Below, in pieces: positions 1 through 20,701 of a stretch of 64,000 nt of DNA. Position numbers and translations under genes: made by a program. This DNA is from a phage. Within the stretch, counting starts at the first letter, position 1; every line of letters begins with the position of its first letter. The stretch is from the sequence record PZ452612.1; one strand, written 5' to 3'. The notes under the pieces were generated by a model. It was not told the DNA's origin, made no database searches, and worked only from the letters and a program-made list of their open reading frames with translations.

Positions 1-1098
1 TGCTAACCCGTTTTTAGATAATTGACGTTTATAATATCTTTCACAATATGTACACGTCGTCCCGCAGATTTCATTAGCACAATCGAAATCTGGATGTCTG
101 AACCACCTTTTTTCTAAAAAGCCATCTAACAAAGAGGTTTCAATATTTACTGTATGTGAAAACTCAGTTTCGTTTTCAAGAGTGAAAATAGTCTCTAAAG
201 GCTTCCACAGTTCTAACAAATTACCTTCAAACTTTTCAGAAGCGTATGCTTCAAGAACTTTCAAAATGTAGTCTGTGCTACCTGTACGTCCTGAAACTTT
301 GAATTGAGTGATACCAATATCATTATAAAGTTTCAAATCTTGAGGACGAACAAAACGAGTTCTCAACCAGTTAAATGGGTCTGTATCACGAGCTTTAATA
401 CAGTGCTGCATAGGATATCCGTTTAAGGATTTAGCATCATCAGCTGTAACATCAGTACTATGGAAAATATAGCAAGAGTCACGATAGCTACAATGTGTTG
501 TATACCCTTTACCAGCATTAGAACAGAACTCATTTACAAGAACTTCAAATATTATATTGTTCTTATTGCAAAACTCTGCTGCACGCTTCAGGAAAGAAAC
601 TGAACGGTTCTTATGAATTCCACAGCAGACCTTTTTGATATTATACTGGTCATGCAAGTATTTGATTTGAGTTACAGCATCGACATGTAGAATTGTTGAA
701 ACTTCAATCTCAATGTCTTTATTGACTTCACGAACAATTTCCATAACAACAGGGTTAGCGATAGTAATACGCCATACGCCTATTGACCAAAGATACTGAA
801 CATAATCCTGAATAGCTTTCTTCTTCCACCCAACTAGTTCTCTTTTTGAACCAGGATTTATCGTGTTGAGTGTATAGTTAAAGCAAATACCTAATTCGTT
901 ACAACGTTTAACGTAATCTTCTAACATCTTTTTGTCAACGTCAGGAAGCCTAAAATCAGGTCTGGCTGCTACAAAAGCCATTTCTCTTGTAGAGCCGTAT
1001 ACTTCGTTTATCAAGCTATTAGGATAAGTTTTATTGAGCTCTACGATTTTATCAAGAAGAGCTAAATCAAAATTCGTTCCAATTTTAAAAGTATTCAT
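1..1098 (-). CDS. Hypothetical Cys-rich protein, partial (C-terminus runs off the window start); contains CX3CX2C near the visible end
   Basis: Manual reverse-complement translation from ATG at 1098: MNTFKIGTNFDLALLDKIVELNK...DFDCANEICGTTCTYCERYYKRQLSKNGLA, open to position 1. Not in the ORF track because it is open-ended. No family recognised. Confidence 0.5.
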   Translation of the reverse strand, partial: MNTFKIGTNFDLALLDKIVELNKTYPNSLINEVYGSTREMAFVAARPDFRLPDVDKKMLEDYVKRCNELGICFNYTLNTINPGSKRELVGWKKKAIQDYVQYLWSIGVWRITIANPVVMEIVREVNKDIEIEVSTILHVDAVTQIKYLHDQYNIKKVCCGIHKNRSVSFLKRAAEFCNKNNIIFEVLVNEFCSNAGKGYTTHCSYRDSCYIFHSTDVTADDAKSLNGYPMQHCIKARDTDPFNWLRTRFVRPQDLKLYNDIGITQFKVSGRTGSTDYILKVLEAYASEKFEGNLLELWKPLETIFTLENETEFSHTVNIETSLLDGFLEKRWFRHPDFDCANEICGTTCTYCERYYKRQLSKNGLA

Positions 1099-1154
1099 TT
1101 TTTTGCATCTCACGTTAATTGATGCGATGGTTTTTGCAGGTCTTACTTAAATTA

Positions 1155-1541
1155 TTATAGATTCGGTTTATATGATTTAAATGTTTCGAATTCGCCTTTA
1201 TTCATAAGAGCTTTGAATTCGTCAGGACGCATAGCTTTGTCGTCGATAATCCAATCATATACTGGTTTATGTGTTAGCAAATTATGGTACTTCAAACCAA
1301 TGTTTTCCAAGTTCTGAATCAGACTTGGGAGAATGTCAATTGCTATACGACCAGGACCTACTGACTTCATACCGCGAGCAGTGTAAAGCGTTATGGTATG
1401 CCCTGCATCATACAGGGCATTAATAGCAGTCACCATTTCGACGTCTGGTTTGAAGTTCACGTAATCACGATTGTTATTCCACTCTGTTATACAATCATCG
1501 ACATCAAAACAAAGATTAAGCATGTTTTCTACACGGTGCAT
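1155..1541 (-). CDS. HAD-superfamily phosphatase-like protein
   Basis: DxD motif FDVDDCIT near the N-terminus and a later IIDDKA motif fit HAD motifs I and IV. Start placed at the internal Met whose ATG overlaps the upstream stop (TAATG coupling); the track ORF extends to 1556. Confidence 0.5.
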   Translation of the reverse strand: MHRVENMLNLCFDVDDCITEWNNNRDYVNFKPDVEMVTAINALYDAGHTITLYTARGMKSVGPGRIAIDILPSLIQNLENIGLKYHNLLTHKPVYDWIIDDKAMRPDEFKALMNKGEFETFKSYKPNL

Positions 1542-3226
1542 TAGATTCGTTCCCATTGATGAGTGATATCGCCACCGATTGGACGATAAGAAACACCAGT
1601 TTCTTTATCAGTTAGTACCCATTTACCAGGATTTTTTGTAATCAGAGTAGCCGTTACAGGTTCTGCTACGTCATAACTAATAGAGCCGTCCTGAAGTACA
1701 CGGCCCATGTTACGTAATTGCTTAGTCAGAAGTTCCATACCTTTATAATATGCGGCTACCGCTTTAAGTGGATTATTCTTGAAATAACCACCTAATGCAA
1801 TCCAGATAATTGCTACAGCCAAATGATGATACTCGTTAAACGAACTCATCTTTCCATATTTGTAAACTAATGGATTGATGTTAATAGTCACATTACAAGT
1901 TGTTTCGTCAATAGTAAACTGTCCCCAGGTCGGATTAGCGTTGAATTCATCATAACCTGAAACAGCATAAAGCACTTTAGCTTCATCATACAATTTTGGC
2001 CCGTAAATCTTGGTTTCGCCAAAATATCCACGAGGGTCGATAAACTTGACTTCGCCGTTATCAGTAATCATAGTATTACTGAAGTTCGGGTCACCGTGAA
2101 TAACAGAGTACTGTCCCTGAGAACGGGTATGATAACGAATAAGATGTTCTAAAGCTTGCTTCAGCATTGGCTTCAGACGTCCAATCTTAGTGTAGTTCAC
2201 GTGTGTGATTTTACCAAATGAATCAATCAATGGCTGAATGCTTTCACAACGATCAATAACTTTCGTATAGAACTCTTTAGTGAAATCACGGCGAACAGTT
2301 TCAGGACTTACAAAATAAGTGTCTGTGCTGAATTTCAGTGCATCTAAAATTGCATCAACAATTTGTGGACGAGCAAGACTTGATTTGGATTTAATATATT
2401 CAAATGCTGGCTTACCTTTAATACGTTCCATTTCAAAATTATTTTCATTTACCGAAACTAACTGAGGAACTGAATCTGATTTCACTTTCAAATACCATGA
2501 AATCTCATCTTTTTGAAGAGCTCGACCTTGTTCGGTTAACGCGAATTTAGTTACAGTTTCTTCGCCAATTTCAACTGCATTAAAACTACGATTAAGTTCA
2601 CGAACTTCATGAGCTTTTTCAAGTTTAGGCATATCACCTAAATCAATTAGATTCATAAGCTCTGATTTATTGAATGCACTGCCGTAAAGGAATTCTACGA
2701 AATCACGTCCTTTGCAGTATTCATGAATTTCCTCATCAGTAGAACCCATGTAGAATTCCCAGTCTTTGAACTGATAAATTCCTACAACATTACCGCCTGT
2801 TGAACCTACGTTAGTGATATTTTCACCATCGAAATTATATCGACATTCATCACCCTTAACATAGATTGCGTTAACATTCCAAGACCATGAACCAAAATCA
2901 GGAATAATATCACACCAGTTAACAATTACGTTATGGCCATCTAAATCTTTGTATAATTTAGCAAGAGCATAAGCAGAACCATACGCTTCATCAACTGTAC
3001 GAATAGTCACATTGAACCCTTCTTGCTCGCAATAAGCTCGAACAGTTTCAGCAAATTTTGAATGAACTACTACAATAATTTCATCTGCGCCAAGGTCAGA
3101 ATAAATTGTATACAAATTGCTCAGAATAGTGTCTTGTTTATAGTTAACAAGAACTTTTGGAATATGATGCGTTATTGGATACAAACGAGTTGCCAGTCCA
3201 GCACCAAGAATAACAGCTTTTTTCAT
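1541..3226 (-). CDS. Bifunctional sugar-1-phosphate nucleotidyltransferase (N-terminal) / sugar kinase (C-terminal, APH/choline-kinase-like)
   Basis: N-terminus MKKAVILGAGLATRLYP matches the GxGxR loop of NTP-transferases. C-terminal half has IHGDPNFSNTMITDNGEVKFIDPRGYFG, an HGD...N...ID catalytic loop typical of phosphotransferase-fold kinases. 561 aa. Confidence 0.6.
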   Translation of the reverse strand: MKKAVILGAGLATRLYPITHHIPKVLVNYKQDTILSNLYTIYSDLGADEIIVVVHSKFAETVRAYCEQEGFNVTIRTVDEAYGSAYALAKLYKDLDGHNVIVNWCDIIPDFGSWSWNVNAIYVKGDECRYNFDGENITNVGSTGGNVVGIYQFKDWEFYMGSTDEEIHEYCKGRDFVEFLYGSAFNKSELMNLIDLGDMPKLEKAHEVRELNRSFNAVEIGEETVTKFALTEQGRALQKDEISWYLKVKSDSVPQLVSVNENNFEMERIKGKPAFEYIKSKSSLARPQIVDAILDALKFSTDTYFVSPETVRRDFTKEFYTKVIDRCESIQPLIDSFGKITHVNYTKIGRLKPMLKQALEHLIRYHTRSQGQYSVIHGDPNFSNTMITDNGEVKFIDPRGYFGETKIYGPKLYDEAKVLYAVSGYDEFNANPTWGQFTIDETTCNVTININPLVYKYGKMSSFNEYHHLAVAIIWIALGGYFKNNPLKAVAAYYKGMELLTKQLRNMGRVLQDGSISYDVAEPVTATLITKNPGKWVLTDKETGVSYRPIGGDITHQWERI

Positions 3227-3267
3227 GTTGTGGTCCTCATTGGTAAGTAGGTGTATTGTACACTATT

Positions 3268-3411
3268 CTAGTTAAAGCATTCATACTTTGCTTGTAGTCC
3301 AATCATAATCCATCCAATTACAAGTGTTGGAATCATTACTGGAGCCGTTAAGCTCCAGTAGATAGTCATGACAAGCATCAATAGTAAAAGTCCTATTGTT
3401 ATTGCTTTCAT
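3268..3411 (-). CDS. Small hydrophobic protein (47 aa), translationally coupled to the upstream isomerase gene
   Basis: Manual translation MKAITIGLLLLMLVMTIYWSLTAPVMIPTLVIGWIMIGLQAKYECFN; its ATG overlaps the stop of 3408..4043 (ATGA). Sits where T4 has imm/imm.1, but no sequence match is claimed. Confidence 0.3.
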   Translation of the reverse strand: MKAITIGLLLLMLVMTIYWSLTAPVMIPTLVIGWIMIGLQAKYECFN

Positions 3412-4043
3412 TGTTCGCCTCGTAACATGGCACCTAGTGCACCGCCTGGATGGAACTTAAGAAAGTCATTAGAGGTAAATCCACGTTCAGACGAAAGGTT
3501 GATAGCAAACGTATCGATAAGCGCTAACAACAATGTAGTGGACATAGTCGGAGCCAGAGAATTCTCATCAACCTCTACCGCGATGCCTGTACAGAAAGAG
3601 TAATCAAAAAGGGCTTCATTTTCTTGCGGAATGTCTGGGTTACAATGCAACAGAATCTGTTTGACATTTGGACGAATCATTTTAAGATGCTTAGCCACGC
3701 CTATCATTTCTTCAGTCTTACCAGAACGACTAATATGAATCAACACATCATTAGGCGCAATGAATCCTGCATCACCGTGAGAATAATGCCCAGTGTTCAA
3801 GTACATACTCGGGATACCGAGTGAAGCAAATGTCTCAGAAGCTTTAGTTGCAATATTAGCATTCTTACCAACACCTGTAATAATTACTCGGCTTTCATAA
3901 TTACTAAGTCCAGGGCGTCGAAGAGTTTCTAGAATAGCATTATAACGAGCAGGGTTTTGACTAATTACTTTGGCCATAGCGGCCAAAGAAGAAGCTTGTT
4001 TTATGATTGCGTCAATAGCGATAGTAATAGGAGTAGTTTTCAT
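3408..4043 (-). CDS. SIS-domain sugar-phosphate isomerase (arabinose-5-phosphate isomerase / phosphoheptose isomerase-like)
   Basis: 211 aa with VIITGVGKNANIATKASETFASLGIP, a SIS phosphosugar-binding signature. Lies directly downstream of gene 43. Confidence 0.6.
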   Translation of the reverse strand: MKTTPITIAIDAIIKQASSLAAMAKVISQNPARYNAILETLRRPGLSNYESRVIITGVGKNANIATKASETFASLGIPSMYLNTGHYSHGDAGFIAPNDVLIHISRSGKTEEMIGVAKHLKMIRPNVKQILLHCNPDIPQENEALFDYSFCTGIAVEVDENSLAPTMSTTLLLALIDTFAINLSSERGFTSNDFLKFHPGGALGAMLRGEQ

Positions 4044-4083
4044 ATTTCTCTCATTTAATTAGTTTACCGTCCATGACATTATA

Positions 4084-6795
4084 TCAAAAATCGAACATAT
4101 CGAACAGAGATGCTTTCTTCTCGTAATCGAGTTTCGCTGCTGATGTGAATCCTTCAAGTGGTTTAATAAATGTCTTCTCAAGGAGAACAGTGTAGTCCAT
4201 CCAATGAAGTACGTCATCTTTAATTAAATCTGTGATTTCAGTACCAGAAGGCCATGCGATACATTTATCACCGAACGGGTTTCCTTCACGTAAAGGCAGA
4301 ACATATACTTTTTCACCTTCTACAACTTGTGGAGCATCAATATTACCTTTGATAGCTCTGTTATATGTCAGAATTCCACGAATATGGAACGGACATTTAG
4401 GACCAGGGAATCCACCTACATCATATTTAGCAATGTTATTCGCAGAAGATACCGACGCGATGCTAATATAATTCAATTGACGGAATTCTTTTTCAAACTC
4501 TTTAAAATATTCTTGTAATGATTCTTCACCTTCTTGAAGCATACGACGAATACATTCTTTAAGAGCTTTCTGTACTGCTTTAGGGGTCGAAGATTTCTGA
4601 GTCTCTAGACCCATGATTTTGAGTTTAGGCTCAGCGTAACGAGTACCTTCCATATCCCACACGTTTAATGCGTAACGTTTCTTACCAGTCCAGAATCCAC
4701 CAATACCTTTAGAACCGAGCGGAGGACCAGCGATAGCTTCTCGGTCCATGAACATTAAGTGTTGTTTATTGTTCATGTATTCACACATTTCACGGAAACC
4801 TCTATCAATAGCAGGTTCCATACGTTCACGAGCGAACTTATCTAAGAAGTCTACCCAATGGTTGGTATCACGGAATTTAGATTCACCAACCTTATCGATA
4901 ATTTTATCAGCAGATACGTAAATAGAGTCTGTATCACCATAAAGAACGAAAGCTTCACCTTCTGTACCACAAACTTCGTTCAGATATTCATTAACTTTAC
5001 GTTCAATCCACTGTAAAGCCATTTGACCAAATGTTGTGATTGCAGTAGCATTACGCAAATCGTAATAACGGAACCAAACGTTGCCAAGTGCACCATAAAG
5101 TGAGTTGATAAGCAATTTACGGTTAATTTGTGCAGTCATACCTGCAACTTCAGTACGTTGAGCTCTAAACAACATTTCATTAAGAGATTTAGCAGACAAC
5201 TTTTTAATCTTTTCTTTAATCTCGTCAGTGAAGTCGAAACGATAATCAACATCTAATGGTTCGTCAACAGAAAGATTAGGATTATGCAACGCCTCTTTAA
5301 TTATTTCACCATTACGTTGAGCCGCAAGCATATAACCTTTATGTTCTTTACGTTGATTAAAGACCTTAGTGATTTCAGTTGGAACTACACCATCACGGTC
5401 TTTATAATACATCATGCCATTAGGAGAACAACTGTACACATCTGAAGGACGTTCAGCGATTGCGTTAATATAATCATGCAGTGGAGCTACTTTAAACGTT
5501 CCTGCTATTGTTTCCGGGCTAATATTCACTTGGCGAATAATACTTGGATACAGAGATGTAAGGTCGAAACTCATTACATATTTGTATCGATTTGGAATAG
5601 GTTCCTTAACAAAAGCGCCAGGATAAGGTTGAACCGGGTGAGAACGACCTTGTGGAATCACCTTGTTCTGCTCTTTAAGGCTATTAAAAATAATAGCATC
5701 CCATGTTTTAATTGGGCTAAACACAGATTGAATCTGTATCTTAGCATAATAACCCATGTCCAAACTCAAGTTGATGAACTGACGCTTAGCATCAATTTGC
5801 AATACACGATACACGTCGATAATGTTATAAGAAATATATCGTTGGTGATTGCTTTCACGAAGCTTAGAAATAGGGCCGTCATATTTCAGTTTACCAACGT
5901 TCAATTCAAATTCTGAAATGTAATCTAGAGAATACGACGGTTGATTGGTAAAAGAGAATTTTTTGTAAAGGTCGATATAATCAAGAACAGAGATACCGAA
6001 CAATGTAATGATTTCACGAGAACCATACATGTTTTCGATAACTTTAACACGAGTTTTACGATGCGGTGATAAACGTTTCGCAGTAGATTCGCCAAAAATA
6101 TTCTTGATTCGGTTATACACATATGGAATATCAAATGACTCAACGTTCCATCCAGTCAAAATGACAGGAGTTTTCTGTTGCCAGAAGTTGAGATATTCCA
6201 TCAACAATTCTTTTTCGTTATCGAACGGCATATAAATGATTTTATCGATAATTTCAGATGGAACTTCATCACCGCCTTGTTCTTGAAGCTTAGCAGCGAT
6301 TTCAATAGACCATTCTTCTACATTACCATATGGAGAATTCAATAGATCAAATACGTAGAACCTGTCGTCAATTGAGTCATAATGGGTGATAGCATCAATC
6401 GGATGTTTTGCTTGTGATGGCTCAGGGAACCCATCCGGAGATGTTACTTCGATGTCGAAGTTAGCCACACGAATTTTTGTATGGTCGTATTTGATTTCAT
6501 AGTTATAAGTGTCAGACAAATACGCCAATTTGAAATCGTCCATGCCAAGTGCTTCAAGTCCGATATCTTCCATGCGTTTAATCCATTGGGAGGCATCACG
6601 CATATTAGCGAACAACTTACGAGTACACGGCTTACCGTAGATATCGAAATATTTCGTAGCCTGACTTTCCGGACAATGAGCAAACAGTGATGGTTTATAT
6701 TCTACTTCACGAGTACGTTCACGGCCATTAGAATCGATGTAACGTTCAAAAATTGAATCACCAATCTGTTCAACCGTTAAGTAAAATTCTTTCAT
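4084..6795 (-). CDS. 43: DNA polymerase (family B), gp43
   Basis: 903 aa, MKEFYLTVEQIGDSIFERYIDSNGRERTREVEYKPSLFAHCPESQ... Contains exo motifs (FDIEV, YNIIDVYRV) and pol motifs (DTDS, KKRYA). Matches the RB69 gp43 sequence as recalled. Confidence 0.97.
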   Translation of the reverse strand: MKEFYLTVEQIGDSIFERYIDSNGRERTREVEYKPSLFAHCPESQATKYFDIYGKPCTRKLFANMRDASQWIKRMEDIGLEALGMDDFKLAYLSDTYNYEIKYDHTKIRVANFDIEVTSPDGFPEPSQAKHPIDAITHYDSIDDRFYVFDLLNSPYGNVEEWSIEIAAKLQEQGGDEVPSEIIDKIIYMPFDNEKELLMEYLNFWQQKTPVILTGWNVESFDIPYVYNRIKNIFGESTAKRLSPHRKTRVKVIENMYGSREIITLFGISVLDYIDLYKKFSFTNQPSYSLDYISEFELNVGKLKYDGPISKLRESNHQRYISYNIIDVYRVLQIDAKRQFINLSLDMGYYAKIQIQSVFSPIKTWDAIIFNSLKEQNKVIPQGRSHPVQPYPGAFVKEPIPNRYKYVMSFDLTSLYPSIIRQVNISPETIAGTFKVAPLHDYINAIAERPSDVYSCSPNGMMYYKDRDGVVPTEITKVFNQRKEHKGYMLAAQRNGEIIKEALHNPNLSVDEPLDVDYRFDFTDEIKEKIKKLSAKSLNEMLFRAQRTEVAGMTAQINRKLLINSLYGALGNVWFRYYDLRNATAITTFGQMALQWIERKVNEYLNEVCGTEGEAFVLYGDTDSIYVSADKIIDKVGESKFRDTNHWVDFLDKFARERMEPAIDRGFREMCEYMNNKQHLMFMDREAIAGPPLGSKGIGGFWTGKKRYALNVWDMEGTRYAEPKLKIMGLETQKSSTPKAVQKALKECIRRMLQEGEESLQEYFKEFEKEFRQLNYISIASVSSANNIAKYDVGGFPGPKCPFHIRGILTYNRAIKGNIDAPQVVEGEKVYVLPLREGNPFGDKCIAWPSGTEITDLIKDDVLHWMDYTVLLEKTFIKPLEGFTSAAKLDYEKKASLFDMFDF

Positions 6796-6807
6796 TTAAT
6801 TTCCTTT

Positions 6808-6823
6808 AGACGAGTTATTGTCT
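6808..6823 (-). promoter_or_regulatory. Putative gp43 translational operator hairpin (stem AGAC/GUCU, 8-nt loop AAUAACUC) just 5' of the gene 43 Shine-Dalgarno
   Basis: mRNA reads AGACAAUAACUCGUCU AAAGGAAAUUAA AUG. The loop sequence and position match the T4-type gp43 autoregulatory operator architecture. Confidence 0.5.
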
Positions 6824-6853
6824 TTTGTTTGTTGATGAACTTATTATACTCCA

Positions 6854-6873
6854 AATGGGACCGAAGTCCCATT
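6854..6873 (-). other. Stable hairpin (AUGGGAC-UUCG-GUCCCAU) immediately after the regA stop, followed by GGAGUAUAAU
   Basis: Perfect 7-bp inverted repeat with a UUCG tetraloop seen in sequence; no long U-tract follows. Confidence 0.4.
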
Positions 6874-6876
6874 GCT

Positions 6877-7245
6877 TTAATTACCAATTGTATATTTTGC
6901 TTTCAAAGTCCAGTCATCTTTCTGTTTAAAAGAGATAACACGGAAGTTATTAGTCAGGCCAAACAGATCTTCACGAGCAGAGTCTTCAATAACAATCAAT
7001 CCCCAGTCTTCAAGCAACTGAGCAATCGAATCACGTCGCTGATAGTCTTCACCATCAATATCAACCTGACGTCCGTCCATACGCAGCATTTCTTTAAAGT
7101 GGACGATGTAATATTTACCTTGCTTTTGGAGGATATGACAAGACTGGTAAAGGACTTTATCCTTGTTATTAGCGATGCCCATACGGGTTAGAGTCTCTTT
7201 GACTTTCAGAAAATCTTCAGGGTTCTTCAATTTAATTTCAATCAT
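6877..7245 (-). CDS. regA: Translational repressor RegA
   Basis: MIEIKLKNPEDFLKVKETLTRMGIANNKDKVLYQSCHILQK... matches T4 RegA as recalled; syntenic between 62 and 43. Start taken at the internal Met. Confidence 0.85.
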   Translation of the reverse strand: MIEIKLKNPEDFLKVKETLTRMGIANNKDKVLYQSCHILQKQGKYYIVHFKEMLRMDGRQVDIDGEDYQRRDSIAQLLEDWGLIVIEDSAREDLFGLTNNFRVISFKQKDDWTLKAKYTIGN

Positions 7246-7247
7246 TT

Positions 7248-7811
7248 TTACCATTCCAATGCTAATTTTTTAAATTGTTTTTGTTCTTTTACGTTTTTAG
7301 TAACTTCTTTGAGAAATTCATCAGTGACCATGGCCTTCAGTTCTTTAAGGACTATTGGCAGCTTGTTATTTTTTTCAAGGAGCCGCTTATACTCGGTAGC
7401 ATCATTCATGTTGATTGTGTAATGTTTCATCAACAGTTTGATAACTAGTAACTCTGAAGTGTCTTCGACTAGTTTAGCCCATTTAGAGAATCGACGACCA
7501 CGCGGAATTGCCGCCATCATATAGTTGAAGTGCGCTTCATCACTTAATTCAGAACCGACTAAGTTCATCATGTAAACGGCTGGCATACATTCTGGAAACT
7601 GGGATAACGAGTTCTCAACCATAAATTTTGAGTAGTCGACCTGAGCAATTGACATAGATTTCTTTTCATTAATAGCATTAATGATTTTAAAGAATTCATT
7701 CTCAGGTTTTTCTTTAAACATATCAGCACATTTTTGAATCGCATCAGCGTCATTAGACTTCCATGCAATTTGGTGCTCGTTAAGCTGGACGTCATCATCG
7801 AATAAGTTCAT
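7248..7811 (-). CDS. 62: Clamp loader small subunit gp62
   Basis: 187 aa, same length as T4 gp62; position between 44 and regA. Confidence 0.8.
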
Positions 7812-7812
7812 A

Positions 7813-8775
7813 TTATTTCCAAGTCAGTTCACAGGTCAGTTGAAGAAGCATATACATAACATGTAATTCAATATTACTTGCTAGTCCATGAAACTTATTA
7901 TTTTCGCCTGCAATTTCGTAAAGCGAAATAATACTTTTACCAGGTGCAACTTGGTCATAACATTCTGAAACTAATTTATCTATGAACCATGAATAATCTG
8001 CAGCATATTTTGGAGCTAATGCACGAAGTTGTTTGATATCTTTGTTCTTCATTGCTTCGATAACATCAGAGACTGTGCCACGGTCATTAGTTACGATAGA
8101 CAGAATACCTGCATCAAGAACACCTTTAGACGAGTACTGGTCTAATTGGCCAATTGTACGACGAAAGTCTGGGAAGTTCTTTTTAACCAGAGCTGCAACA
8201 ACTTTCATATCAGCGATTTCGATATTTTCGTTCTTACAGATTTCAACCATACGATGAATCATTTTCTTCATCATCGAGATTTTATCTTCTTCAGTCGGAC
8301 GACCGAATTCTATAACTCGACAACGGCTACGTAATGGTTCAATAATTCCATCAATGTTGTTGGCAGTAATAATAATAGAACAGTTACTAGAGAATTCTTC
8401 CATAAACGTACGAAGGTGACGTTGTGATTCGGCGAGGCCACTACGGTCAAATTCATCAATAACAATAACTTTAGGCTTGCCTTCCATTGAGACTGAACGA
8501 GCGAATGCAGTTAACGGACCACGCACAAAATCAATCTTACAATCAGAACCGTTGACGAACATCATTTCGGCATTGATATCATTACATAATGCTTTTGCTA
8601 CGGTTGTTTTACCTGTACCAGGAGAAGGAGAGTGCAAAATAATATGAGGAAGTTTTCCTTTAGATACTAAAGACTTGAATGTTTCATGGTCATACGCAGG
8701 CAGAATACATTCGTCAATGGAAGAAGGACGATATTTCTGTTCTAGAATGTGTTCTTTGGAATTGATAGTAATCAT
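7813..8775 (-). CDS. 44: Clamp loader large subunit gp44 (AAA+ ATPase)
   Basis: 320 aa; Walker [11 protein letters not shown], Walker [12 protein letters not shown] motif. Confidence 0.9.
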
Positions 8776-8850
8776 GTAATTTTCCTCATTATCATTAAAC
8801 TGGAGGATTTCTCCTCCATAATCGTATCACATTAAACGTAAATCTTTGTC

Positions 8851-9537
8851 TTAGAAGTCGTGAGTAGAATCGGCTTCCATTGCAATAACATAACTTACTT
8901 GAGAGCTTTCAAACTTGGCTGCAACTTTATCACCAGCTCCCCACAACATTACTTTATAGTTACCTGGCTGGATTTTCATATTAGCCATATTGATTACAAA
9001 GTTAAAGTTATTAGAACCATCATAATCGGTAAGAGTCAAAGAATACTTAGGACGAGTTAGTCCGGAATCTTCAACTTTATTGTAACCGTTGATAACAATT
9101 TTACCATCTTTATTTGTAATAGCAATTGTATCAATCTGGAGACCACGTGAAACTCGAAGCAATTGTTGAAGGTCTTCAGCTTTAATTTCAGTAATCACAG
9201 AAGCCACCGGGAATTGAATTGGCTTATTAGGAAAAACAATGGTGCTCTTGTCGGCAGCAGGCCAATAAACTGTGGAACGTGTATCTGCAATTTTAATATT
9301 GCCATCGGTGTGCATTGAAATTTCAGCATCATCAGACACTAGACTCAAAATGCTTAAGAAGCTATTCAAATCATAAAGTGCTACGTCAAAATCAATTTCA
9401 TCGGAGATATTTGCTTCTGCATAAGTGGTGCCATTAACTGCACGGGTCATAATAAATTTACCTTGACTCAGCAGAATGCCGGAGTTAATAGAGGCAAAGT
9501 TTTTCAGAATAGCGATAGTATCTTTAGACAGTTTCAT
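8851..9537 (-). CDS. 45: Sliding clamp gp45
   Basis: MKLSKDTIAILKNFASINSGILL...EADSTHDF matches T4 gp45 as recalled; start at internal Met. Confidence 0.9.
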   Translation of the reverse strand: MKLSKDTIAILKNFASINSGILLSQGKFIMTRAVNGTTYAEANISDEIDFDVALYDLNSFLSILSLVSDDAEISMHTDGNIKIADTRSTVYWPAADKSTIVFPNKPIQFPVASVITEIKAEDLQQLLRVSRGLQIDTIAITNKDGKIVINGYNKVEDSGLTRPKYSLTLTDYDGSNNFNFVINMANMKIQPGNYKVMLWGAGDKVAAKFESSQVSYVIAMEADSTHDF

Positions 9538-9579
9538 TTTATTTCCTTTCAAGACAATTCAAAGTTTATAACAAATTTA

Positions 9580-9996
9580 TTATGCAGCAACCATCTGCTT
9601 TTTAATAGCTTCAGGCAGTGATTCAATATATTCTGGAATTTTAGAAGCAACAATTTCGCCAGCTGCAATTAATTGTTCATCGGCATCAACACAGTAGAAA
9701 TCTTCCAGACGCTCAGAACCATCTTTATCAAGAACGATTTTTCCACCTGCTTCAATAGAATCTTTATAGTGCTTACGCATCAGATGAATCCACATATCAG
9801 ATACATCGTTATCAATAAAACCATAAATCATAAAACGAGTTTCTTGTGGCAAAGATTGAAGCTTTTTAGCACTTGCGTCATCACAATGCAGGACCCATGC
9901 TTTACGAACACGATTATGGTTATGCGGGTTAGCGTCAGTACGGATAGAAGTAACTTTCAGATCAGCAGCAGTGAAACCTTTAGCAGTAGTAAACAT
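9580..9996 (-). CDS. rpbA: RNA polymerase-binding protein RpbA (by synteny)
   Basis: 138 aa ORF between 45 and 46, the T4 rpbA slot. Confidence 0.55.
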   Translation of the reverse strand: MFTTAKGFTAADLKVTSIRTDANPHNHNRVRKAWVLHCDDASAKKLQSLPQETRFMIYGFIDNDVSDMWIHLMRKHYKDSIEAGGKIVLDKDGSERLEDFYCVDADEQLIAAGEIVASKIPEYIESLPEAIKKQMVAA

Positions 9997-10008
9997 ATTA
10001 TTTCTCTC

Positions 10009-10209
10009 TTATTCGTAGAAGTCAGTAACTGTCCATGCGGAATTGCGATTAGACATTATTTTATTATACTCATCTTTAAAAGCAGATTTGAGCATTTGTT
10101 CAGTAACAATATGTTCTTCACCTGAAAACGTATTGGTCAAAACATATTTTTTAATTTCAGGGACAACAAGAAGATGTTGTCCGGTTGAATACTCCATGTT
10201 GTTCTCCAT
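10009..10209 (-). CDS. Hypothetical small protein
   Basis: 66 aa ORF between 46 and rpbA. Confidence 0.4.
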   Translation of the reverse strand: MENNMEYSTGQHLLVVPEIKKYVLTNTFSGEEHIVTEQMLKSAFKDEYNKIMSNRNSAWTVTDFYE

Positions 10210-10251
10210 TTAATTTGATGTGGTCATTATAACCACATCGTGTTAAAGCGT

Positions 10252-12185: not shown

Positions 12186-12420
12186 CCTCGATACATGCTT
12201 CAGCCATTTTAAGAATAGAGCCAGGAGTATCGTTGTCCATTATATTAAAGCTAAATTCAATAGCCCAGTCGGTACAGACATGAACGGCTTTAACTTCATT
12301 GCCTTCAACGCGTAATGGCTCAATCCAATACTTGATAGTGTTCTCGAATCCATCATCATCTTTAACGTCTATTTCAACTTCAAGCCCAAGCCCGGCATTG
12401 TTAAATTCATCTAAAGTCAT
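12163..12420 (-). CDS. Hypothetical acidic protein (46.2-like position)
   Basis: 85 aa ORF, overlaps the gp47 stop. Confidence 0.45.
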   Translation of the reverse strand: MTLDEFNNAGLGLEVEIDVKDDDGFENTIKYWIEPLRVEGNEVKAVHVCTDWAIEFSFNIMDNDTPGSILKMAEACIEDAYNDED

Positions 12421-13436
12421 TGTGTTGCCTCAATATAAAGTTCGTTAGAATATTTGACCAGCGCTTCTCTGTCTTCGTCTGAGATATCTGGAATCGCGTC
12501 AATATATTCTTTAATGATATCTTGAAGTGATTTAATCTCGATTTCCTGGTCGTCATCAGATTCAACACTGTTATCAACTTTAGAAACCATACGAAGAGAG
12601 TGAACTACTTTTTCAAGTTCAGATTCAAACTTAGTCAACTCTGAATCAATTTCTGATACTATAACACGTACGGCTAGATTAGTATAATCAGAATAATTGA
12701 TTTTGCCTTTAAACGGATAAGTGATTCTTCGATGCCATGTTGTTTCATTAGGAATAAATTCCATACGTTCAACATCAGTGTCAAATACCCAGAATCCACG
12801 CGGGTCGTTCTCATCACCTGCAGTAAGGGTCCACGGTGTTCCAATATATTTGACGTTAGCAGCTTCAGAGATTGTGTGGAAGTGGCCTGACCAGACTTGT
12901 TTATAAGTCTTTAAGAAATCAGGTTCAAGCCCATGAGACTTCATCCCTTTATAGAAATAAAAGCCGTTCAGTTCCCAGTGCCCAACACAATACGCAGCAG
13001 AAGAAGTCTTGATGTGCTCTAAGATTTCACCTGTATTTTCTTCACACATCCATGGAACGATATCAATCAGACATCCGTCAAAATCTACAGTAGTCGGATG
13101 CTCATAAATAGTAAAGTTTTCAAATTGAGTTAACAATTCAGAAACAGTGTTAGGTGTTATTGTATTCTTAAACGCCATGTCATGGTTTCCTATCGTGACA
13201 TGAACGTGAATGCCTGCTTTAGAAATCATATCAACGATTTCACGATTGAATTCCATTGTACGATGTGTTATTGCTTTACGGACGTCAAACCAATCACCGT
13301 ACTGAATCCAAGTTTTAATCCCGTGTTTCTTAGAGTATTCAATTGCTTGTCGAATACCATCACGTTGAATATCTTGAACCCATGGGTCGTCTTGTTTGAC
13401 TCCGATATGGAAGTCGCCTAAGTGCAAAATTTTCAT
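12417..13436 (-). CDS. 47: Recombination endonuclease subunit gp47 (SbcD/Mre11-like phosphoesterase)
   Basis: MKILHLGDFHIG...GNHD...GHFH metallophosphatase motifs; 339 aa as in T4 gp47. Confidence 0.9.
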   Translation of the reverse strand: MKILHLGDFHIGVKQDDPWVQDIQRDGIRQAIEYSKKHGIKTWIQYGDWFDVRKAITHRTMEFNREIVDMISKAGIHVHVTIGNHDMAFKNTITPNTVSELLTQFENFTIYEHPTTVDFDGCLIDIVPWMCEENTGEILEHIKTSSAAYCVGHWELNGFYFYKGMKSHGLEPDFLKTYKQVWSGHFHTISEAANVKYIGTPWTLTAGDENDPRGFWVFDTDVERMEFIPNETTWHRRITYPFKGKINYSDYTNLAVRVIVSEIDSELTKFESELEKVVHSLRMVSKVDNSVESDDDQEIEIKSLQDIIKEYIDAIPDISDEDREALVKYSNELYIEATQ

Positions 13437-13478
13437 ATTATTTCCTCATTAGTTAATTCATTTTATCATCCGTTTATA

Positions 13479-13507
13479 AAGCAAAAAAGGAACTCCGAAG
13501 AGTTCCT
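13479..13507 (-). terminator. Rho-independent terminator (AGGAACUC-UUCG-GAGUUCCU followed by UUUUUUGC)
   Basis: Perfect 8-bp stem, UUCG loop and a 6-U tract read on the minus strand, directly after the stop of the small ORF 13506..13679. Confidence 0.6.
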
Positions 13508-14223: not shown

Positions 14224-14224
14224 A

Positions 14225-14440
14225 TTATCTCATTAAATTAAAATAAAAACGTCCATCCTCTTCAATACAGAACTCATACTCAACTGGAGTCCCATTTATC
14301 GAAAATGACACGTCATGTGGGTTCAAAGGGTCGATGTCAAAATTAATTTTAAATTCACGACCCAACAGTTTTACCAAATAAGGGATTGCTTCGTCAAAAG
14401 GTTCTTCTAAGTAGTTAGAGATGTCAATTGTCATCCTCAT
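14225..14440 (-). CDS. Hypothetical protein
   Basis: Track ORF 14225..14518 trimmed to an internal Met so that it does not run deep into gene 55. Confidence 0.35.
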
Positions 14441-14999
14441 ATAAAAAATCCAAACTAGGCGAATCGCTAACAACTTCCTTCTTTTCAGCCCCAGGAGCTT
14501 TATAAGCGGATTCTTCATAATGCGTCATTTTATCGTAGATGTCTTGAATAAACGTTTCATCTACTAACGCTACCATATCATCGTCATGACTGTCGTAGAC
14601 ATTATGAACGAAGTAACTATATTTCTTTGCAACTTCCTTACGTTCTTTTTTGATACGTTGGACAAAAGCATTAAAACAAGCTCGAGTTATGTATGCATGT
14701 GGGTTATTGTACTTAGTTTCGTCGAAATTATGAAGTCCCTTAATAGAGGCTTCAATCCCATCTGCAATCATCTCCTGCTTCCAAGACTGGGTATATCCTG
14801 AAAAGTTGAAACGTTTGGACAGGCCTTCGGCGATAAGCATAATTGCTAAACCGATGGTATCATTCTGACGAATAATTTTGTTTGGGTCTTTATTATTTAA
14901 GAGCTCCTTTTTCCACTCGATTATAGCGGCGAGAAGCTCTTTATTATTCACATAGTTATTTTTAGGTTTTTGTTCAGTCATAAGTACCTCTTGGCTCAA
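14424..14999 (-). CDS. 55: Late-transcription sigma factor gp55
   Basis: ...[62 protein letters not shown]... matches T4 gp55 as recalled. Confidence 0.95.
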
Positions 15000-18416: not shown

Positions 18417-18887
18417 TTAATCATGTTTCCACACCCCATTGGTATTCGACCAAAGTCGCTGATTATCTGATCCTCGCCACAGTTTTTTGGTCGGAAGATT
18501 TTTCTCATACTTCCCATCAATAATAACATCAACATATTTAAGCATTTCTAGTTGTTTAATATCTTCAAACTTATATCCTGTCCACAACCAAATGCTTTTA
18601 TTGGGATAAATATTTTTTACTGTTTGAACAATGCAATGAACAACATCTCTATTATCAGGATAGAGAGGGTCGCCTCCGGTTATAGTCAATCCTTCTATAT
18701 AATCATTATTCAAACATTCAATTAATTGTTCTAGTGTCTCTCCAGTGAATGGAGCACCATTTCTAGCGTTCCATGTTGATTTATTATAACACCCTTCACA
18801 TTTATGCAAACAACCTGTAACGAAAAGAACGACCCTGCAACCAGGGCCATTCACAAAATCGCAAGGATAAAATCTATCATAATTCAT
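18417..18887 (-). CDS. nrdG: Anaerobic ribonucleotide reductase activating protein NrdG (radical SAM)
   Basis: CLHKCEGCYN is a CX3CX2C radical-SAM motif; 156 aa; immediately downstream of nrdD. Confidence 0.9.
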   Translation of the reverse strand: MNYDRFYPCDFVNGPGCRVVLFVTGCLHKCEGCYNKSTWNARNGAPFTGETLEQLIECLNNDYIEGLTITGGDPLYPDNRDVVHCIVQTVKNIYPNKSIWLWTGYKFEDIKQLEMLKYVDVIIDGKYEKNLPTKKLWRGSDNQRLWSNTNGVWKHD

Positions 18888-20701
18888 TGGTGTTTAACCC
18901 TATGCATGATTTCTTTATTTTTACCGAGATTAAATCCGCGTTCGTTCGGATTTCCCAAATAACCGCATGTTCTTCTTATGGTGTTCATCTTTTTAGGATC
19001 AGTTTCTCCGCAAACTGAACAAACAAATCCGTTTTCAGTAGGAGTCATTTCATGGGTACTTCCACATGTAAAACATTTATCTACTGGCATATTAACACCA
19101 AAATAATCTAAATGTTGTGCAGCATAATCCCAGACAGCCTCAAGTCCCTTTAAATTGTTTTTCATATCTGGAAGTTCAACATAAGAAATGTGACCACCTG
19201 TCGCAATGAAATGATATGGCGCTTCACGAGAAATCTTTTCAAACGGAGTAATATTTTCTTCTACTGAAACATGGAAACTATTAGTGTACCAGCCTTTATC
19301 TGTAACATCTTTTACACTTCCATATTTTTCTGTGTCTAGTTTACAGAAACGATAACAAAGGTTTTCAGCAGGTGTAGAATACAAGCTAAAAGCAAACCCA
19401 GTTCTTTCAGTCCATTGTTTAAGAAGAGCATTCATTTTAGTTAAAATTTCTTGTCCAATATCACGTCCGACAAGAATATTCAATTCGTGGATACCAATGT
19501 ATCCTAAAGACACTGAACTTCTACCGTTTTTAAATAACTCAATTATGTCGTCATCAGGTTTAAGACGAACCCCGAATGCACCTTCTTGGTAAAGAATAGG
19601 AGCAACAGTCGCTTTAACTCCTTTTAAGGAACTAATTCTACACATCAAGGCTTCAAAACACAGATCCATACGTTCATTGAATAATTCAACAAATTTCTGT
19701 TCATTGAACTGTGTTCCAATATAAGAATCTAATGCGATACGAGGAAGATTCAGTGTTACAACACCGAGATTATTACGTCCATCAAGAATTTCATTACCAG
19801 TCGAATCTTTCCATACGCTCAAGAAACTACGGCAACCCATTGGAGAAACTGGAACTGAAGAACCAGTAATAGCTTTATTATTCTTAGCTGAAATAATATC
19901 AGGATACATTCTTTTGCTTGCGCACTCTAGAGCAAGCTGCTTAATATCATAGTTCGGATCGTCTTTATAAAGATTAACACCTTCTTCAACGAACATAACA
20001 AGCTTAGGGAAAATAGGAGTTATTCCATCACGACCAAGACCTTTAATGCGGTTTTTAAGAATTGCCTTCTGAATCATTCGTTCAGTCCAATCGGCCCCCG
20101 TACCAAATGTAATTGTTACAAAAGGCGTTTGTCCGTTTGAACTAAAGAGAGTATTTACTTCATATTCATAAGCTTGGAACGCGTCATAGACATCTTTTTC
20201 TGTTTTGGATTGAGCATAATTCAACGCATCAGCGATTTGCCATTTTTCCGCATCTTCAACATGTTTAGCGTATGTGCGTTTAACATAAGGAGAAAGAACT
20301 TTATCGACATTTGCAAATGTAGTTCCGCCATACTGATGTGAAGCAACTTGTGCAGTAATTTGTGCCATAATTGCAGTAGCAACACCAATCGATTTAGGCG
20401 TTTCAATTTGAGCATTGCCTAATTTAAATCCGTTCTCAAGCATCCCCTTTAAATCGACTAAACAACAATTAGTAAACGGAAGAGCAGGAGAATAATCAAT
20501 ATCATGCATGTGGATAATTCCACTTTCATGCGCATTCATAATAAAAGACGGGACCATATTTTTGGCAATGTGCTTAGACACAATACCAGCCATAAGGTCC
20601 CGTTGAGTTGGAAAAACACGAGAATCTTTATTAGCATTCTCGTTTAAAAGGTCTTTATTAGTTTTATGAATTAATCCTTCAATTTCTTTTTCAATTTTCA
20701 T
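18884..20701 (-). CDS. nrdD: Anaerobic ribonucleoside-triphosphate reductase NrdD
   Basis: 605 aa; C-terminal glycyl-radical motif RRTCGYLG and a C-terminal Cys cluster. Confidence 0.95.
   Translation of the reverse strand: MKIEKEIEGLIHKTNKDLLNENANKDSRVFPTQRDLMAGIVSKHIAKNMVPSFIMNAHESGIIHMHDIDYSPALPFTNCCLVDLKGMLENGFKLGNAQIETPKSIGVATAIMAQITAQVASHQYGGTTFANVDKVLSPYVKRTYAKHVEDAEKWQIADALNYAQSKTEKDVYDAFQAYEYEVNTLFSSNGQTPFVTITFGTGADWTERMIQKAILKNRIKGLGRDGITPIFPKLVMFVEEGVNLYKDDPNYDIKQLALECASKRMYPDIISAKNNKAITGSSVPVSPMGCRSFLSVWKDSTGNEILDGRNNLGVVTLNLPRIALDSYIGTQFNEQKFVELFNERMDLCFEALMCRISSLKGVKATVAPILYQEGAFGVRLKPDDDIIELFKNGRSSVSLGYIGIHELNILVGRDIGQEILTKMNALLKQWTERTGFAFSLYSTPAENLCYRFCKLDTEKYGSVKDVTDKGWYTNSFHVSVEENITPFEKISREAPYHFIATGGHISYVELPDMKNNLKGLEAVWDYAAQHLDYFGVNMPVDKCFTCGSTHEMTPTENGFVCSVCGETDPKKMNTIRRTCGYLGNPNERGFNLGKNKEIMHRVKHQ

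Follow-up and report, generated by a model that had tools for sequence, protein, structure and literature searches.

A probable UDP-arabinofuranose supply line beside gene 43 of an RB69-like phage, adjoined by a U32-family protein that may be an oxygen-independent hydroxylase

In the phage DNA analyzed here (64,000 nt of PZ452612.1, hereafter the window), the minus-strand genes at positions 1155..4043 very probably form the UDP-D-arabinofuranose supply line of an RB69-like Mosigvirus. The steps of this pathway have been demonstrated in the near-identical phages RB69 and HY126 and are carried over to the present genome via homology. The new lead at the locus is the adjacent U32-family gene, which may encode an unrecognized oxygen-independent cytosine hydroxylase.

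Sequence comparison of positions 1-4100, a stretch that stops just within gene 43 (4084..6795), gave 100% identity to E. coli O157 typing phages 3/6/13 and 98.5% identity to RB69 (genus Mosigvirus), in agreement with the RB69-like polymerase noted by the first-pass annotation of this DNA. The gene order is that of RB69 from gp55 to gp50, according to the RB69 annotation, and downstream of gene 43 the minus strand carries the isomerase, a 47-aa ORF, the fusion, the HAD phosphatase and a partial Cys-rich gene. Gene 43, the upstream neighbor, fixes the place of the cassette within the T4-type gene order. The features are as follows:

4084..6795, minus strand, gene 43 DNA polymerase, 903 aa (ORF and RB69 annotation)
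3408..4043, minus strand, predicted single-domain SIS D-arabinose-5-phosphate isomerase, 211 aa (RB69 gp55 homologue)
3268..3411, minus strand, conserved hydrophobic small ORF, predicted membrane protein, 47 aa (phrog_3610; position of RB69 ORF054c)
1541..3226, minus strand, predicted bifunctional nucleotidyltransferase/kinase fusion, 561 aa (RB69 gp52:53 homologue; HY126 AfhE analogue)
1155..1541, minus strand, predicted HAD-type phosphatase, 128 aa (RB69 gp51 and HY126 AfhF homologue)
1..1098, minus strand, predicted U32-family Fe-S protein, partial, 366 codons with the 3' end past the window edge (RB69 gp50 homologue)

The first-pass annotation had described four co-directional, translationally coupled genes. 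All four ORFs are present on the minus strand, but a fifth had been overlooked, the 47-aa ORF, which matches phrog_3610 over its full length (6.8e-27) and has a counterpart at the same position in the RB69 annotation (ORF054c). Coupling is evident at two junctions, a TAATG overlap between fusion and phosphatase (1541-1543) and an ATGA overlap between isomerase and 47-aa ORF (3408-3411), whereas the remaining junctions are separated by gaps of 40-56 nt. The phosphatase gene has a second possible start, an ATG upstream at 1556.

The three sugar enzymes proposed from the sequence were all recovered in profile and structure searches. The isomerase matched the SIS domain (PF01380, 1e-10), the KpsF/GutQ subfamily (TIGR00393, 2e-32) and the KdsD model (7e-31), remaining below the equivalog cut-offs of the last two because the CBS pair is absent. 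Its top solved structure was the single-domain arabinose-5-P isomerase 3etn (2.6e-25), with further matches to 5uqi and 2xhz, and it belongs to phrog_5670, "arabinose 5-phosphate isomerase" (4e-116). The fusion, a single ORF here (phrog_4098, 1.7e-294), carries an N-terminal NTP_transferase domain (PF00483, 1.3e-9, residues 3-99) and matched the cytidylyltransferase structure 1jyk (2.4e-5), while the kinase-fold matches of its C-terminal half were sub-threshold only (Fructosamin_kin, 0.0044, residues 354-409). Both activities have been reported for AfhE of HY126, as summarized in PMC13326640. Resequencing of RB69 likewise found gp52:53 to be one ORF (PMC6024577); the split in the RB69 GenBank record is due to a sequencing error. 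The phosphatase matched TIGR01689 (2e-13), PDB 1xpj (1.8e-10) and, with ~98% identity over all 128 residues, PDB 9IQW (2.4e-86), an entry that shares its deposit series with 9IQC, 9IQU and 9IR2, all near-identical to gp48.

RB69 DNA carries arabinose, and UDP-Ara synthesis was proposed for ORF53_52c and ORF055c (PMC6024577). More recently, gp55, gp52:53 and gp51 were placed in the UDP-arabinose pathway (PMC13326640), a study that also summarizes the AfhE/AfhF biochemistry of HY126 (He et al. 2026). By homology to gp55, whose role was assigned there, the product of 3408..4043 is predicted to interconvert ribulose-5-P and arabinose-5-P, and would thus draw on host ribulose-5-P. The C-terminal domain of the fusion, weakly recognizable by sequence, is the predicted Ara5P kinase and would phosphorylate C1 to give arabinose-1,5-bisphosphate; the phosphatase, as a gp51/AfhF homologue, would then take off the 5-phosphate, yielding Ara1P. 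Finally, the N-terminal domain of the fusion, the predicted uridylyltransferase, would condense Ara1P with UTP to UDP-arabinofuranose. This order departs from the initial proposal, in which the phosphatase preceded the kinase and released a free sugar.

The acceptor also had to be corrected. The first reading took hydroxymethylcytosine as the glycosylated base, but the 2018 assignment of that base in RB69 was revised, and the modified base is arabinosyl-5-hydroxycytosine, with gp48 as the 5hodCMP synthase that incorporates 18O from O2 (PMC13326640). In the present phage, 5-hydroxycytosine would fully replace cytosine, being supplied as 5hodCMP by a flavin/O2-dependent ThyA homologue, gp48, and DNA arabinosyltransferases of the RB69 gp46:47 and gp3 types, encoded outside the window, would add one or two arabinoses, so that the DNA would withstand restriction enzymes. 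The gp48 gene lies just past the window edge. The core of the first-pass idea, a phage-made NDP-arabinose drawn from pentose phosphate for glycosylation of modified-cytosine DNA, has been demonstrated experimentally with what are essentially the same proteins (PMC6024577, PMC13326640). It is not new, the donor pathway being already in print (Thomas 2018, Mahler 2025, He 2026, Lee 2026).

Automatic names might suggest instead that the cassette alters the host envelope, by supplying arabinose-5-P for Kdo, LPS or capsule, or a capsule-type sugar nucleotide: the genes are labeled "KpsF", "GlmU" and "capsule biosynthesis phosphatase" (TIGR01689), and 9IQW is titled "Capsule biosynthesis protein". 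We consider this highly improbable, given that every cytosine of RB69 virion DNA is arabinosylated and homologous enzymes yield UDP-arabinose (PMC6024577, PMC13326640). Moreover, the cassette genes always cluster with a cytosine hydroxylase, a dNMP-kinase-like gene and DNA glycosyltransferases, both in T4-like and in unrelated phages, and the isomerase lacks the CBS domains found in KdsD and GutQ.

The product of 1..1098 had been counted among the sugar enzymes as a Cys-rich partial protein. Cys-rich and partial it is (13 Cys within 366 codons; RB69 gp50 has 389 aa), but its place in the sugar pathway did not hold, since its profile match (Peptidase_U32, PF01136, 42.4 bits; cut-off 22.4) and predicted fold identify it as a U32-family Fe-S protein outside the known pathway. 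Its AlphaFold2 model (pLDDT 93) found the U32 protein 5d88 as top PDB match. Ten Cys are invariant across a 31-sequence family alignment, three of which align with Fe-S ligands of RlhA, TrhP and UbiU, while the CX6CX15CX3-4C motif lacks its fourth canonical Cys. It is also the best-conserved protein at the locus, with 82-89% identity across T4-like genera versus 65-79% for the DNA polymerase. The family name and many GenBank records would make it a "peptidase" or "collagenase-like protease", a true proteolytic role that we regard as very unlikely: U32 "peptidases" have no established catalytic mechanism, the invariant Cys, with the Fe-S ligands among them, are indicative of a redox enzyme, and the gene context is nucleotide metabolism.

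No published role for the phage U32 protein was found in the accessible literature, and it passes no NCBIfam equivalog model (UbiU: 17.9 bits versus 440). When compared with the U32 proteins of E. coli, of which there are four, it gave its best profile match to RlhA, the ho5C synthase (E 3e-5). RlhA, TrhP and UbiU-V need prephenate and Fe-S clusters (PMC5727448, PMC6599085, PMC10990095), although in vitro hydroxylation is not yet demonstrated for any U32 protein (PMC10990095). In 51 phage records, a chorismate mutase gene (PF01817, above cut-off) lies between the U32 and ThyA-like genes. Furthermore, at 39 non-T4-like phage loci the U32 gene is linked to GT, AfhE-like, SIS, HAD and dNMP-kinase genes, sometimes also with DAHP-synthase/chorismate-mutase fusions, and no gp48-type hydroxylase was found within 10 kb of it (the search in uncultured contigs spanning +/-10 kb around U32). 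From this context and the family analogy, we infer with about an even chance of being right that gp50-type U32 proteins act as pyrimidine C5-hydroxylases, installing the 5-hydroxyl group in a reaction that depends on prephenate and not on O2. Against it, Dhakaviruses, which infect E. coli, carry gp48, AfhE and HAD genes without U32, which is therefore dispensable for modification aerobically, and the chorismate mutase gene is not present in Mosigviruses themselves. The missing fourth Cys and the failed equivalog models likewise count against it.

The proximity to RlhA would also suit an enzyme hydroxylating RNA, host or phage tRNA at U34 or rRNA at C2501, that tunes translation during infection as a TrhP/RlhA analogue; tRNA genes are present in T4-like phages, and cmo5U synthesis is another process that draws on prephenate. 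This appears quite unlikely, as the phage protein (366-389 aa) has none of the additional C-terminal domains found in TrhP (453 aa) and RlhA (653 aa) and, in all lineages examined, is encoded within modules for DNA precursors and DNA glycosylation (GT, dNMP kinase, dCMP deaminase, dUTPase, DNA polymerase). Somewhat less unlikely, but still doubtful, is a reductase or epimerase acting on a sugar or heterocycle, for instance tailoring arabinose or a second sugar. Lee et al. 2026 tentatively label the protein a "sugar or heterocycle reductase" (PMC13326640 Table 1), a 2026 paper mentions an "epimerase" in the U32/sugar gene cluster, the gene directly adjoins the sugar genes, and the TIM-barrel structurally resembles, if weakly, sugar-phosphate isomerases/epimerases and aldolases. 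However, the UDP-Araf pathway is already complete without U32, and in Acinetobacter phages and Dhakaviruses the entire sugar pathway occurs with no U32 gene. In addition, characterized U32 members are all tied to aromatic or pyrimidine ring hydroxylation and none to sugars, and sugar chemistry gives no rationale for the recurrent chorismate mutase neighbor.

Compared with known systems, the locus belongs to the arabinosyl-5-hydroxycytosine system of RB69, HY126 and DLP3 (RB69 gp45-gp55; HY126 AfhE, AfhF): genes, order and the slot between gene 43 and uvsX are common to both, and nothing substantive differs in the three sugar genes. In T4, the same slot after gene 43 is taken by the glucosyl-hydroxymethylcytosine system (gene 42, alpha-gt, beta-gt, host UDP-glucose). 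The two systems follow one logic: dCMP is modified by an enzyme of the ThyA superfamily, DNA synthesis takes up the resulting dNTP, and the base then receives its sugar within DNA as an anti-restriction measure. Unlike in T4, the base is 5-hydroxycytosine (O-C5 ether) rather than hydroxymethylcytosine, and the sugar is arabinofuranose rather than glucose, whose donor must be phage-made because Enterobacteria lack NDP-arabinose. The usual alpha-gt slot is without that gene, as first noted; the interval from gene 47 (12417..13436) to gene 55 (14424..14999) holds no ORF of the size expected for an alpha-glucosyltransferase. The isomerase shares its SIS catalytic domain with KdsD, GutQ, KpsF and the single-domain enzyme of Bacteroides fragilis (PDB 3etn), but falls far under the KdsD/GutQ equivalog cut-offs, and its product would go to DNA glycosylation, not Kdo.

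The phage U32 protein, in turn, shares PF01136 and the TIM-barrel with RlhA (ho5C2501, 23S rRNA), TrhP (ho5U34, tRNA) and UbiU-UbiV (anaerobic ubiquinone), together with three of the four Fe-S ligand positions and the FKxxGR motif. As in RlhA, there is an additional C-terminal Cys cluster, and the proposed product base, 5-hydroxycytosine, is also the same; the link to prephenate is genomic, through chorismate mutase, its maker. It differs in forming a separate phage-restricted subfamily with weak profile similarity to these proteins, in its Cys spacing (C-x10-C-x5-C-x23-C versus CX6CX15CX3-4C) and in its presumed substrate, a deoxynucleotide or DNA. The adjacent gp48 (flavin/O2) and gp50 (U32) recall the aerobic/anaerobic pairs of E. 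coli, TrhO/TrhP and UbiI,H,F/UbiU-V, and would hypothetically be redundant in the same way. Unlike those pairs, the hydroxylase of the E. coli Dhakaviruses has no U32 partner; phages with both gp48 and gp50 also carry NrdDG, and their hosts are facultative anaerobes.

Over its first 4.1 kb, the window shows 100% identity to Escherichia coli O157 typing phages 3, 6 and 13 and 98.5% identity to RB69 (genus Mosigvirus). The cassette genes reported in the first-pass annotation are present on the minus strand, together with a 47-aa ORF that it overlooked. The features are arranged as follows.

4084..6795, minus strand: gene 43, DNA polymerase, at the upstream end of the cassette
3408..4043, minus strand: SIS protein, 211 aa, first gene downstream of gene 43
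3268..3411, minus strand: conserved hydrophobic ORF, 47 aa (phrog_3610), with an ATGA overlap with the isomerase stop codon
1541..3226, minus strand: 561-aa protein, fusion of a nucleotidyltransferase and a putative kinase
1155..1541, minus strand: HAD phosphatase, 128 aa, with an alternative start at 1556
1..1098, minus strand: U32 gene, 366 codons in the window, continuing past its edge

The RB69 annotation gives the same order (gp55, ORF054c, gp53 + gp52, gp51, gp50), with ORF054c annotated shorter than the 47-aa ORF at the same position. Beyond the equivalent of the window, RB69 continues with gp49, the ThyA homologue gp48, gp47/46, gp45 and uvsX, in that order. Translational coupling, first proposed for the whole cassette, holds at the 561-aa/128-aa junction (TAATG overlap) and at the SIS/47-aa junction (ATGA overlap), but not at the remaining junctions, which have gaps of 40 to 56 nt. 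Scans for promoters and terminators in the cassette region returned no matches above chance. One sigma-70-like match at 1154..1181 on the minus strand (TTTAAA, 16-nt spacer, TATAAT; 10/12 positions), itself not significant, lies a short way ahead of the U32 gene, inside the phosphatase gene at its 3' end. The 561-aa fusion is intact as a single ORF in the window phage, and Mosigvirus copies are 96 to 100% identical. It is a putative orthologue of the characterised HY126 AfhE, with indirect support from this identity and from the close match of the neighbouring phosphatase to 9IQW. In the RB69 reference record it is split as gp53/gp52 (L001:8561-9226 and 7540-8580), and the glycosyltransferase is split as gp47/gp46 (L001:4043-4943); the literature puts these split ORFs down to sequencing errors. 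The polymerase, previously described as RB69-like, is that of RB69. The absence of alpha-glucosyltransferase from its usual slot was also borne out: between gene 47 and gene 55 the window has no ORF of its size and none above 107 aa, and RB69 has a-gt.2 to a-gt.5 annotated there but not a-gt.

The SIS protein matched PF01380 at 41.9 bits (cut-off, 25), the KpsF/GutQ subfamily model TIGR00393 at 2e-32, and PDB entries 3etn, 5uqi and 2xhz at 1e-19 to 1e-25, the best being 3etn (2.6e-25). The SIS plus two CBS architecture is absent from this 211-aa protein, with model positions matched only to about 200, and for this reason it falls below the equivalog cut-offs of KdsD (107.7 bits versus 505) and GutQ (80.8 bits versus 481). 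It is thus of the single-domain type, like the solved arabinose-5-phosphate isomerase 3etn. Interconversion of Ru5P and Ara5P by gp55 has been assigned from homology and structure prediction (PMC13326640). Residues 3-99 of the 561-aa protein matched PF00483 (38.4 bits versus a cut-off of 21.2; 1.3e-9), and its N terminus also matched several NCBIfam nucleotidyltransferase models, down to 1e-13, and PDB 1jyk, which makes this a sugar-1-phosphate nucleotidyltransferase domain. The C-terminal half gave sub-threshold kinase-fold matches only (Fructosamin_kin, 16.7 bits versus 22.4, and Bud32). Sequence searches for solved structures of the fusion gave distant relatives only, and structural matches to 3ham and 6hwl are published for RB69 gp52:53 (PMC13326640). 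The 128-aa protein, which shows the Asp-rich nucleophile motif FDVDD, is a HAD phosphatase of the AfhF type, with matches to PDB 9IQW (2.4e-86 over residues 1-128, about 98% identical), 1xpj (1.8e-10) and TIGR01689 (2e-13). Entries 9IQC, 9IQU and 9IR2, of the same deposit series as 9IQW, are near-identical to RB69 gp48, in agreement with the crystal structures reported for phage HY126.

The biochemistry of this system has been described. RB69 DNA contains arabinose, ORF053c and ORF052c are a single gene of 561 codons, and this gene and ORF055c were proposed to act in UDP-arabinose synthesis (Thomas et al. 2018, PMC6024577). The modified base is mono- and di-arabinosylated 5-hydroxycytosine, not hydroxymethylcytosine, and the route from Ru5P to NDP-arabinofuranose has been assigned to gp55, gp52:53 and gp51 (Lee et al. 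2026, PMC13326640). The 5hodCMP synthase, gp48, takes up 18O from O2 and copurifies with a flavin (FMN-like) cofactor (PMC13326640). In HY126, according to He et al. 2026 as cited in PMC13326640, AfhE acts both as arabinose-5-phosphate kinase and as UDP-arabinose pyrophosphorylase, and arabinose-1,5-bisphosphate is dephosphorylated by AfhF, a Mg-dependent phosphatase. Consequently, the central idea of the first-pass annotation, a phage-made NDP-arabinose donor for DNA glycosylation, is correct but was already published by these authors for RB69 and HY126 (PMC6024577, PMC13326640): the cassette is real and its main reading right, and it describes a known system. Three details of that reading need to be replaced. 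The acceptor is 5-hydroxycytosine rather than hmC (PMC13326640); the kinase precedes the phosphatase, without the free sugar that a phosphatase-first order would produce (PMC13326640); and the Cys-rich fourth gene, taken for a sugar-pathway enzyme, encodes a U32-family protein with no step in that pathway. The cassette belongs to the arabinosyl-5-hydroxycytosine system, a DNA hypermodification against restriction that the literature has settled; it influences which hosts these coliphages can infect, how sensitive they are to defence systems and how they can be used in therapy and typing.

The U32 protein (gp50 in RB69) matched PF01136 at 42.4 bits (cut-off, 22.4). Its AlphaFold2 model (pLDDT, 93) had the U32 protein Mk0906 (5d88; E, 4e-7; TM, 0.72) as the best Foldseek match, with only generic TIM barrels besides in the PDB fold search; sequence searches found no solved relatives. 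The product of 1..1098 is therefore assigned to the Peptidase U32 family, with a predicted U32 TIM-barrel fold. In an alignment of 31 members, with identity down to 48%, ten cysteines are invariant. Among them, C192, C209 and C233 align with [4Fe-4S] ligands 1 to 3 of RlhA, TrhP and UbiU (canonical positions from bioRxiv 10.1101/587956). Ligand 4 of the CX6CX15CX3-4C arrangement of those proteins is absent from the phage protein; its place may be taken by C203, also invariant, which lies in an inserted hairpin. Residues 340-352, near the C terminus, hold a further invariant cluster, CX4CX3CX2C, and the FKxxGR motif is kept. The family name would suggest a true peptidase; for a protein with cysteines at Fe-S ligand positions, we find this barely credible.

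Profile comparison (hhalign) of the phage family with the E. coli U32 proteins gave RlhA at E 3e-5, TrhP at 4.5e-3, UbiU at 9.7e-3 and nothing for UbiV. The best match among these four, RlhA, is the 23S rRNA 5-hydroxycytidine synthase, which might indicate an RNA-hydroxylating phage protein. The phage protein passed none of the curated subfamily models (for NF047963, UbiU, 17.9 bits versus a cut-off of 440), and by these scores it belongs to a distinct subfamily outside UbiU, UbiV, TrhP and RlhA. Its genes lie among those for DNA modification, and RNA hydroxylation appears highly improbable. Of the 54 U32 loci examined, L004 alone, with cellular-looking flanks, is not on a phage-like contig. 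In the published account, gp50 is tabulated as a "sugar or heterocycle reductase" (Lee et al. 2026, PMC13326640), and the text sets the hydroxylation pathways of RlhA and TrhP apart from the ThyA-type enzyme as unrelated (PMC13326640). A full-text literature search, with He 2026 and Mahler 2025 outside its coverage, returned no link of U32 to phage DNA modification.

The gene is strongly conserved in cultured phages. A tblastn search returned 222 phage records, every one with at least 82% identity and all from phages of Enterobacterales or Shewanella. Between Mosigvirus and other T4-like genera, identity is 82 to 89% for U32, 74 to 83% for gp48, 65 to 79% for DNA polymerase and 42 to 72% for the AfhE homologue. 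None of the phage records with a gp48 homologue from Acinetobacter (57) or Rhizobium (22) was among the U32 matches. In Acinetobacter phages, the isomerase, AfhE, HAD and ThyA-like genes are contiguous, with no U32 or chorismate mutase gene. Both Dhakavirus IME341 and Acinetobacter phage Apostate have AfhE-like, HAD, ThyA-like, glycosyltransferase and kinase genes after the DNA polymerase gene; Apostate has the isomerase gene, IME341 has an unannotated 166-aa gene in that position, and neither cluster contains U32 or chorismate mutase. IME341 also keeps imm between the polymerase gene and the modification cluster. The distribution is suggestive of U32 presence tracking the oxygen lifestyle of the host, across few independent lineages and with the Dhakaviruses of E. 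coli as an exception.

In 12 of 15 T4-like IMG/VR loci, U32 is followed by a gene of 79 to 132 aa, either immediately or after one intervening small gene; the Mosigvirus locus is among the exceptions. All five representatives scanned (5/5) encode a chorismate mutase type II (PF01817, 36 to 47 bits versus the Pfam cut-off of 27). They come from T4-like phages of Enterobacter, Klebsiella, Proteus, Serratia and Yersinia, and the gene lies between the U32 and ThyA-like 5hodCMP synthase genes.

L019:11158-11397, chorismate mutase type II, PF01817 above cut-off
L020:11158-11403, the same
L022:11387-11785, the same
L025:11158-11502, the same
L026:11366-11671, the same

The gene was found by tblastn in 51 phage records and, where annotated, adjoins a "peptidase" and/or "thymidylate synthase" gene. 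The phage enzymes retain EcCM residues R11, R28, K39, E52, S84 and Q88, and R51 is lost. Mosigvirus lacks the gene and has the unrelated 79-aa gp49 in that position. Four uncultured-phage loci have a DAHP-synthase/chorismate-mutase fusion one gene from U32, and in two a DAHP synthase gene comes next after U32, so that in uncultured phages shikimate-pathway genes sit inside the DNA-modification cluster.

L041:8411-9433, L044:7302-8357, L045:8332-9387 and also L043: DAHP-synthase/chorismate-mutase fusions, 340-351 aa
L006:11145-11891 and L029:9384-10130: stand-alone DAHP synthase, 248 aa, next to U32

Furthermore, 39 non-T4-like U32 loci from IMG/VR and metagenomes, on contigs of up to 466 kb, were inspected over 10 kb on either side; their U32 homologues are 40 to 58% identical. 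U32 is tightly linked to a homologue of the gp46:47 glycosyltransferase in 17 loci, to an AfhE-like fusion in 17 and to SIS in 10, and likewise to KdsC-like HAD phosphatase and dNMP-kinase-like genes. These counts rest on direct BLAST, since single-linkage clustering joined glycosyltransferases with dNMP-kinase-like proteins, some of which are fused. A 326- to 334-aa protein upstream of U32 was considered as a UbiV-like partner and rejected (hhalign E, 0.3 to 0.7); it is the homologue of the RB69 gp46:47 glycosyltransferase. A compact operon of glycosyltransferase (sometimes fused to a dNMP-kinase-like domain), SIS isomerase, AfhE-like fusion, KdsC-like HAD and U32 recurs in non-T4-like viral contigs.

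L036, L039, L041, L044, L045, L048, L054 and L058, at about 4000-11100 in each: compact glycosyltransferase-SIS-AfhE-HAD-U32 operon
L010:10001-12000, with the same layout in L037: TET-associated-type DNA glycosyltransferase (PF20691, 4e-8) right after U32

The compact operon suggests that glycosylated 5-hydroxypyrimidine DNA occurs far outside Straboviridae. No gp48-type hydroxylase was detected within 10 kb in the 39 loci by tblastn or HMM, the sole ThyA-family match being an ordinary dUMP-type thymidylate synthase (L030), and a sample of unannotated U32 neighbours contained no TET/JBP or other oxygenase.

Other neighbours vary among the loci. L010 and L037 have a dUTPase/DCD gene and a UDP-galactopyranose mutase gene near U32, and in L012 and L013 radical SAM/SPASM genes precede the glycosyltransferase-U32 pair. 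Genes for SAM-dependent methyltransferases lie close to U32 at L040:11963-12775, with a weak, threshold-level O-methyltransferase-domain match, and at L004:7912-9156, and dCMP-deaminase and dUTPase genes occur near such loci, where a 5-methoxy-pyrimidine DNA base is conceivable. The L004 cluster (10001-16360) combines U32 with a 5'-nucleotidase, a PnuC-like transporter, a deoxynucleoside kinase, a radical SAM/SPASM protein, a second, weak U32 paralogue and a nucleoside deoxyribosyltransferase-like gene.

In E. coli, TrhP has an O2-dependent counterpart, TrhO, and UbiU-UbiV has UbiI/H/F. RlhA, TrhP and UbiU-UbiV have all been connected with hydroxylation without O2, for which Fe-S clusters and prephenate are required (PMC5727448, PMC6599085, PMC10990095). 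A cytosine-replacing phage with an O2-dependent enzyme, in a facultative anaerobe of the gut, plainly needs a route that works in anoxia, and the window phage is equipped for DNA-precursor synthesis without oxygen, since it carries both anaerobic ribonucleotide reductase genes.

18417..18887, minus strand: NrdG, anaerobic ribonucleotide reductase activase
18884..20701, minus strand: NrdD, anaerobic ribonucleotide reductase

From U32 homology, gene context and this need, we propose, with evenly divided confidence, that gp50 is a phage-specific U32 Fe-S enzyme, an O2-independent C5-hydroxylase of pyrimidine deoxynucleotides or DNA with prephenate as the oxygen donor. RB69-like phages would then have an anaerobic equivalent of gp48, the flavin/O2-dependent enzyme, and a phage that has done away with dCTP could go on replicating in an anoxic gut. 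In the many uncultured phages with no gp48 homologue near the cluster, the hydroxyl would come from U32 alone, to be glycosylated or possibly methylated afterwards, and the phage chorismate mutases and DAHP synthases would supply prephenate. Action at the nucleotide level is favoured because dNMP-kinase-like genes are adjacent. Against a hydroxylase stand the Dhakaviruses of E. coli without U32, the Mosigviruses without a chorismate mutase gene, the missing fourth canonical cysteine, the failure of all curated subfamily models, and the fact that in vitro hydroxylation by any U32 protein has not yet been shown (PMC10990095). Sugar tailoring would fit the position of U32 directly beside the sugar genes; given Acinetobacter phages with the sugar genes and no U32, it seems unlikely. 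Taken together, the evidence points to a role of gp50 other than "sugar or heterocycle reductase".

If gp50 is such a hydroxylase, it would explain the anaerobic replication of phages that rely on an O2-requiring hydroxylase and make sense of the chorismate mutase and DAHP synthase genes that phages carry. The prephenate-dependent U32 hydroxylases would gain their first substrate among DNA precursors, a soluble one that could open the way to a long-sought in vitro assay, and 5-hydroxypyrimidine-based DNA modifications would be predicted in many uncultured phages, jumbo phages included. The U32 gene at the window edge is the part of the locus worth following up. The cassette itself departs from the T4 glucosyl-hmC system: behind gene 43, in the position of beta-gt, stand the arabinose genes.
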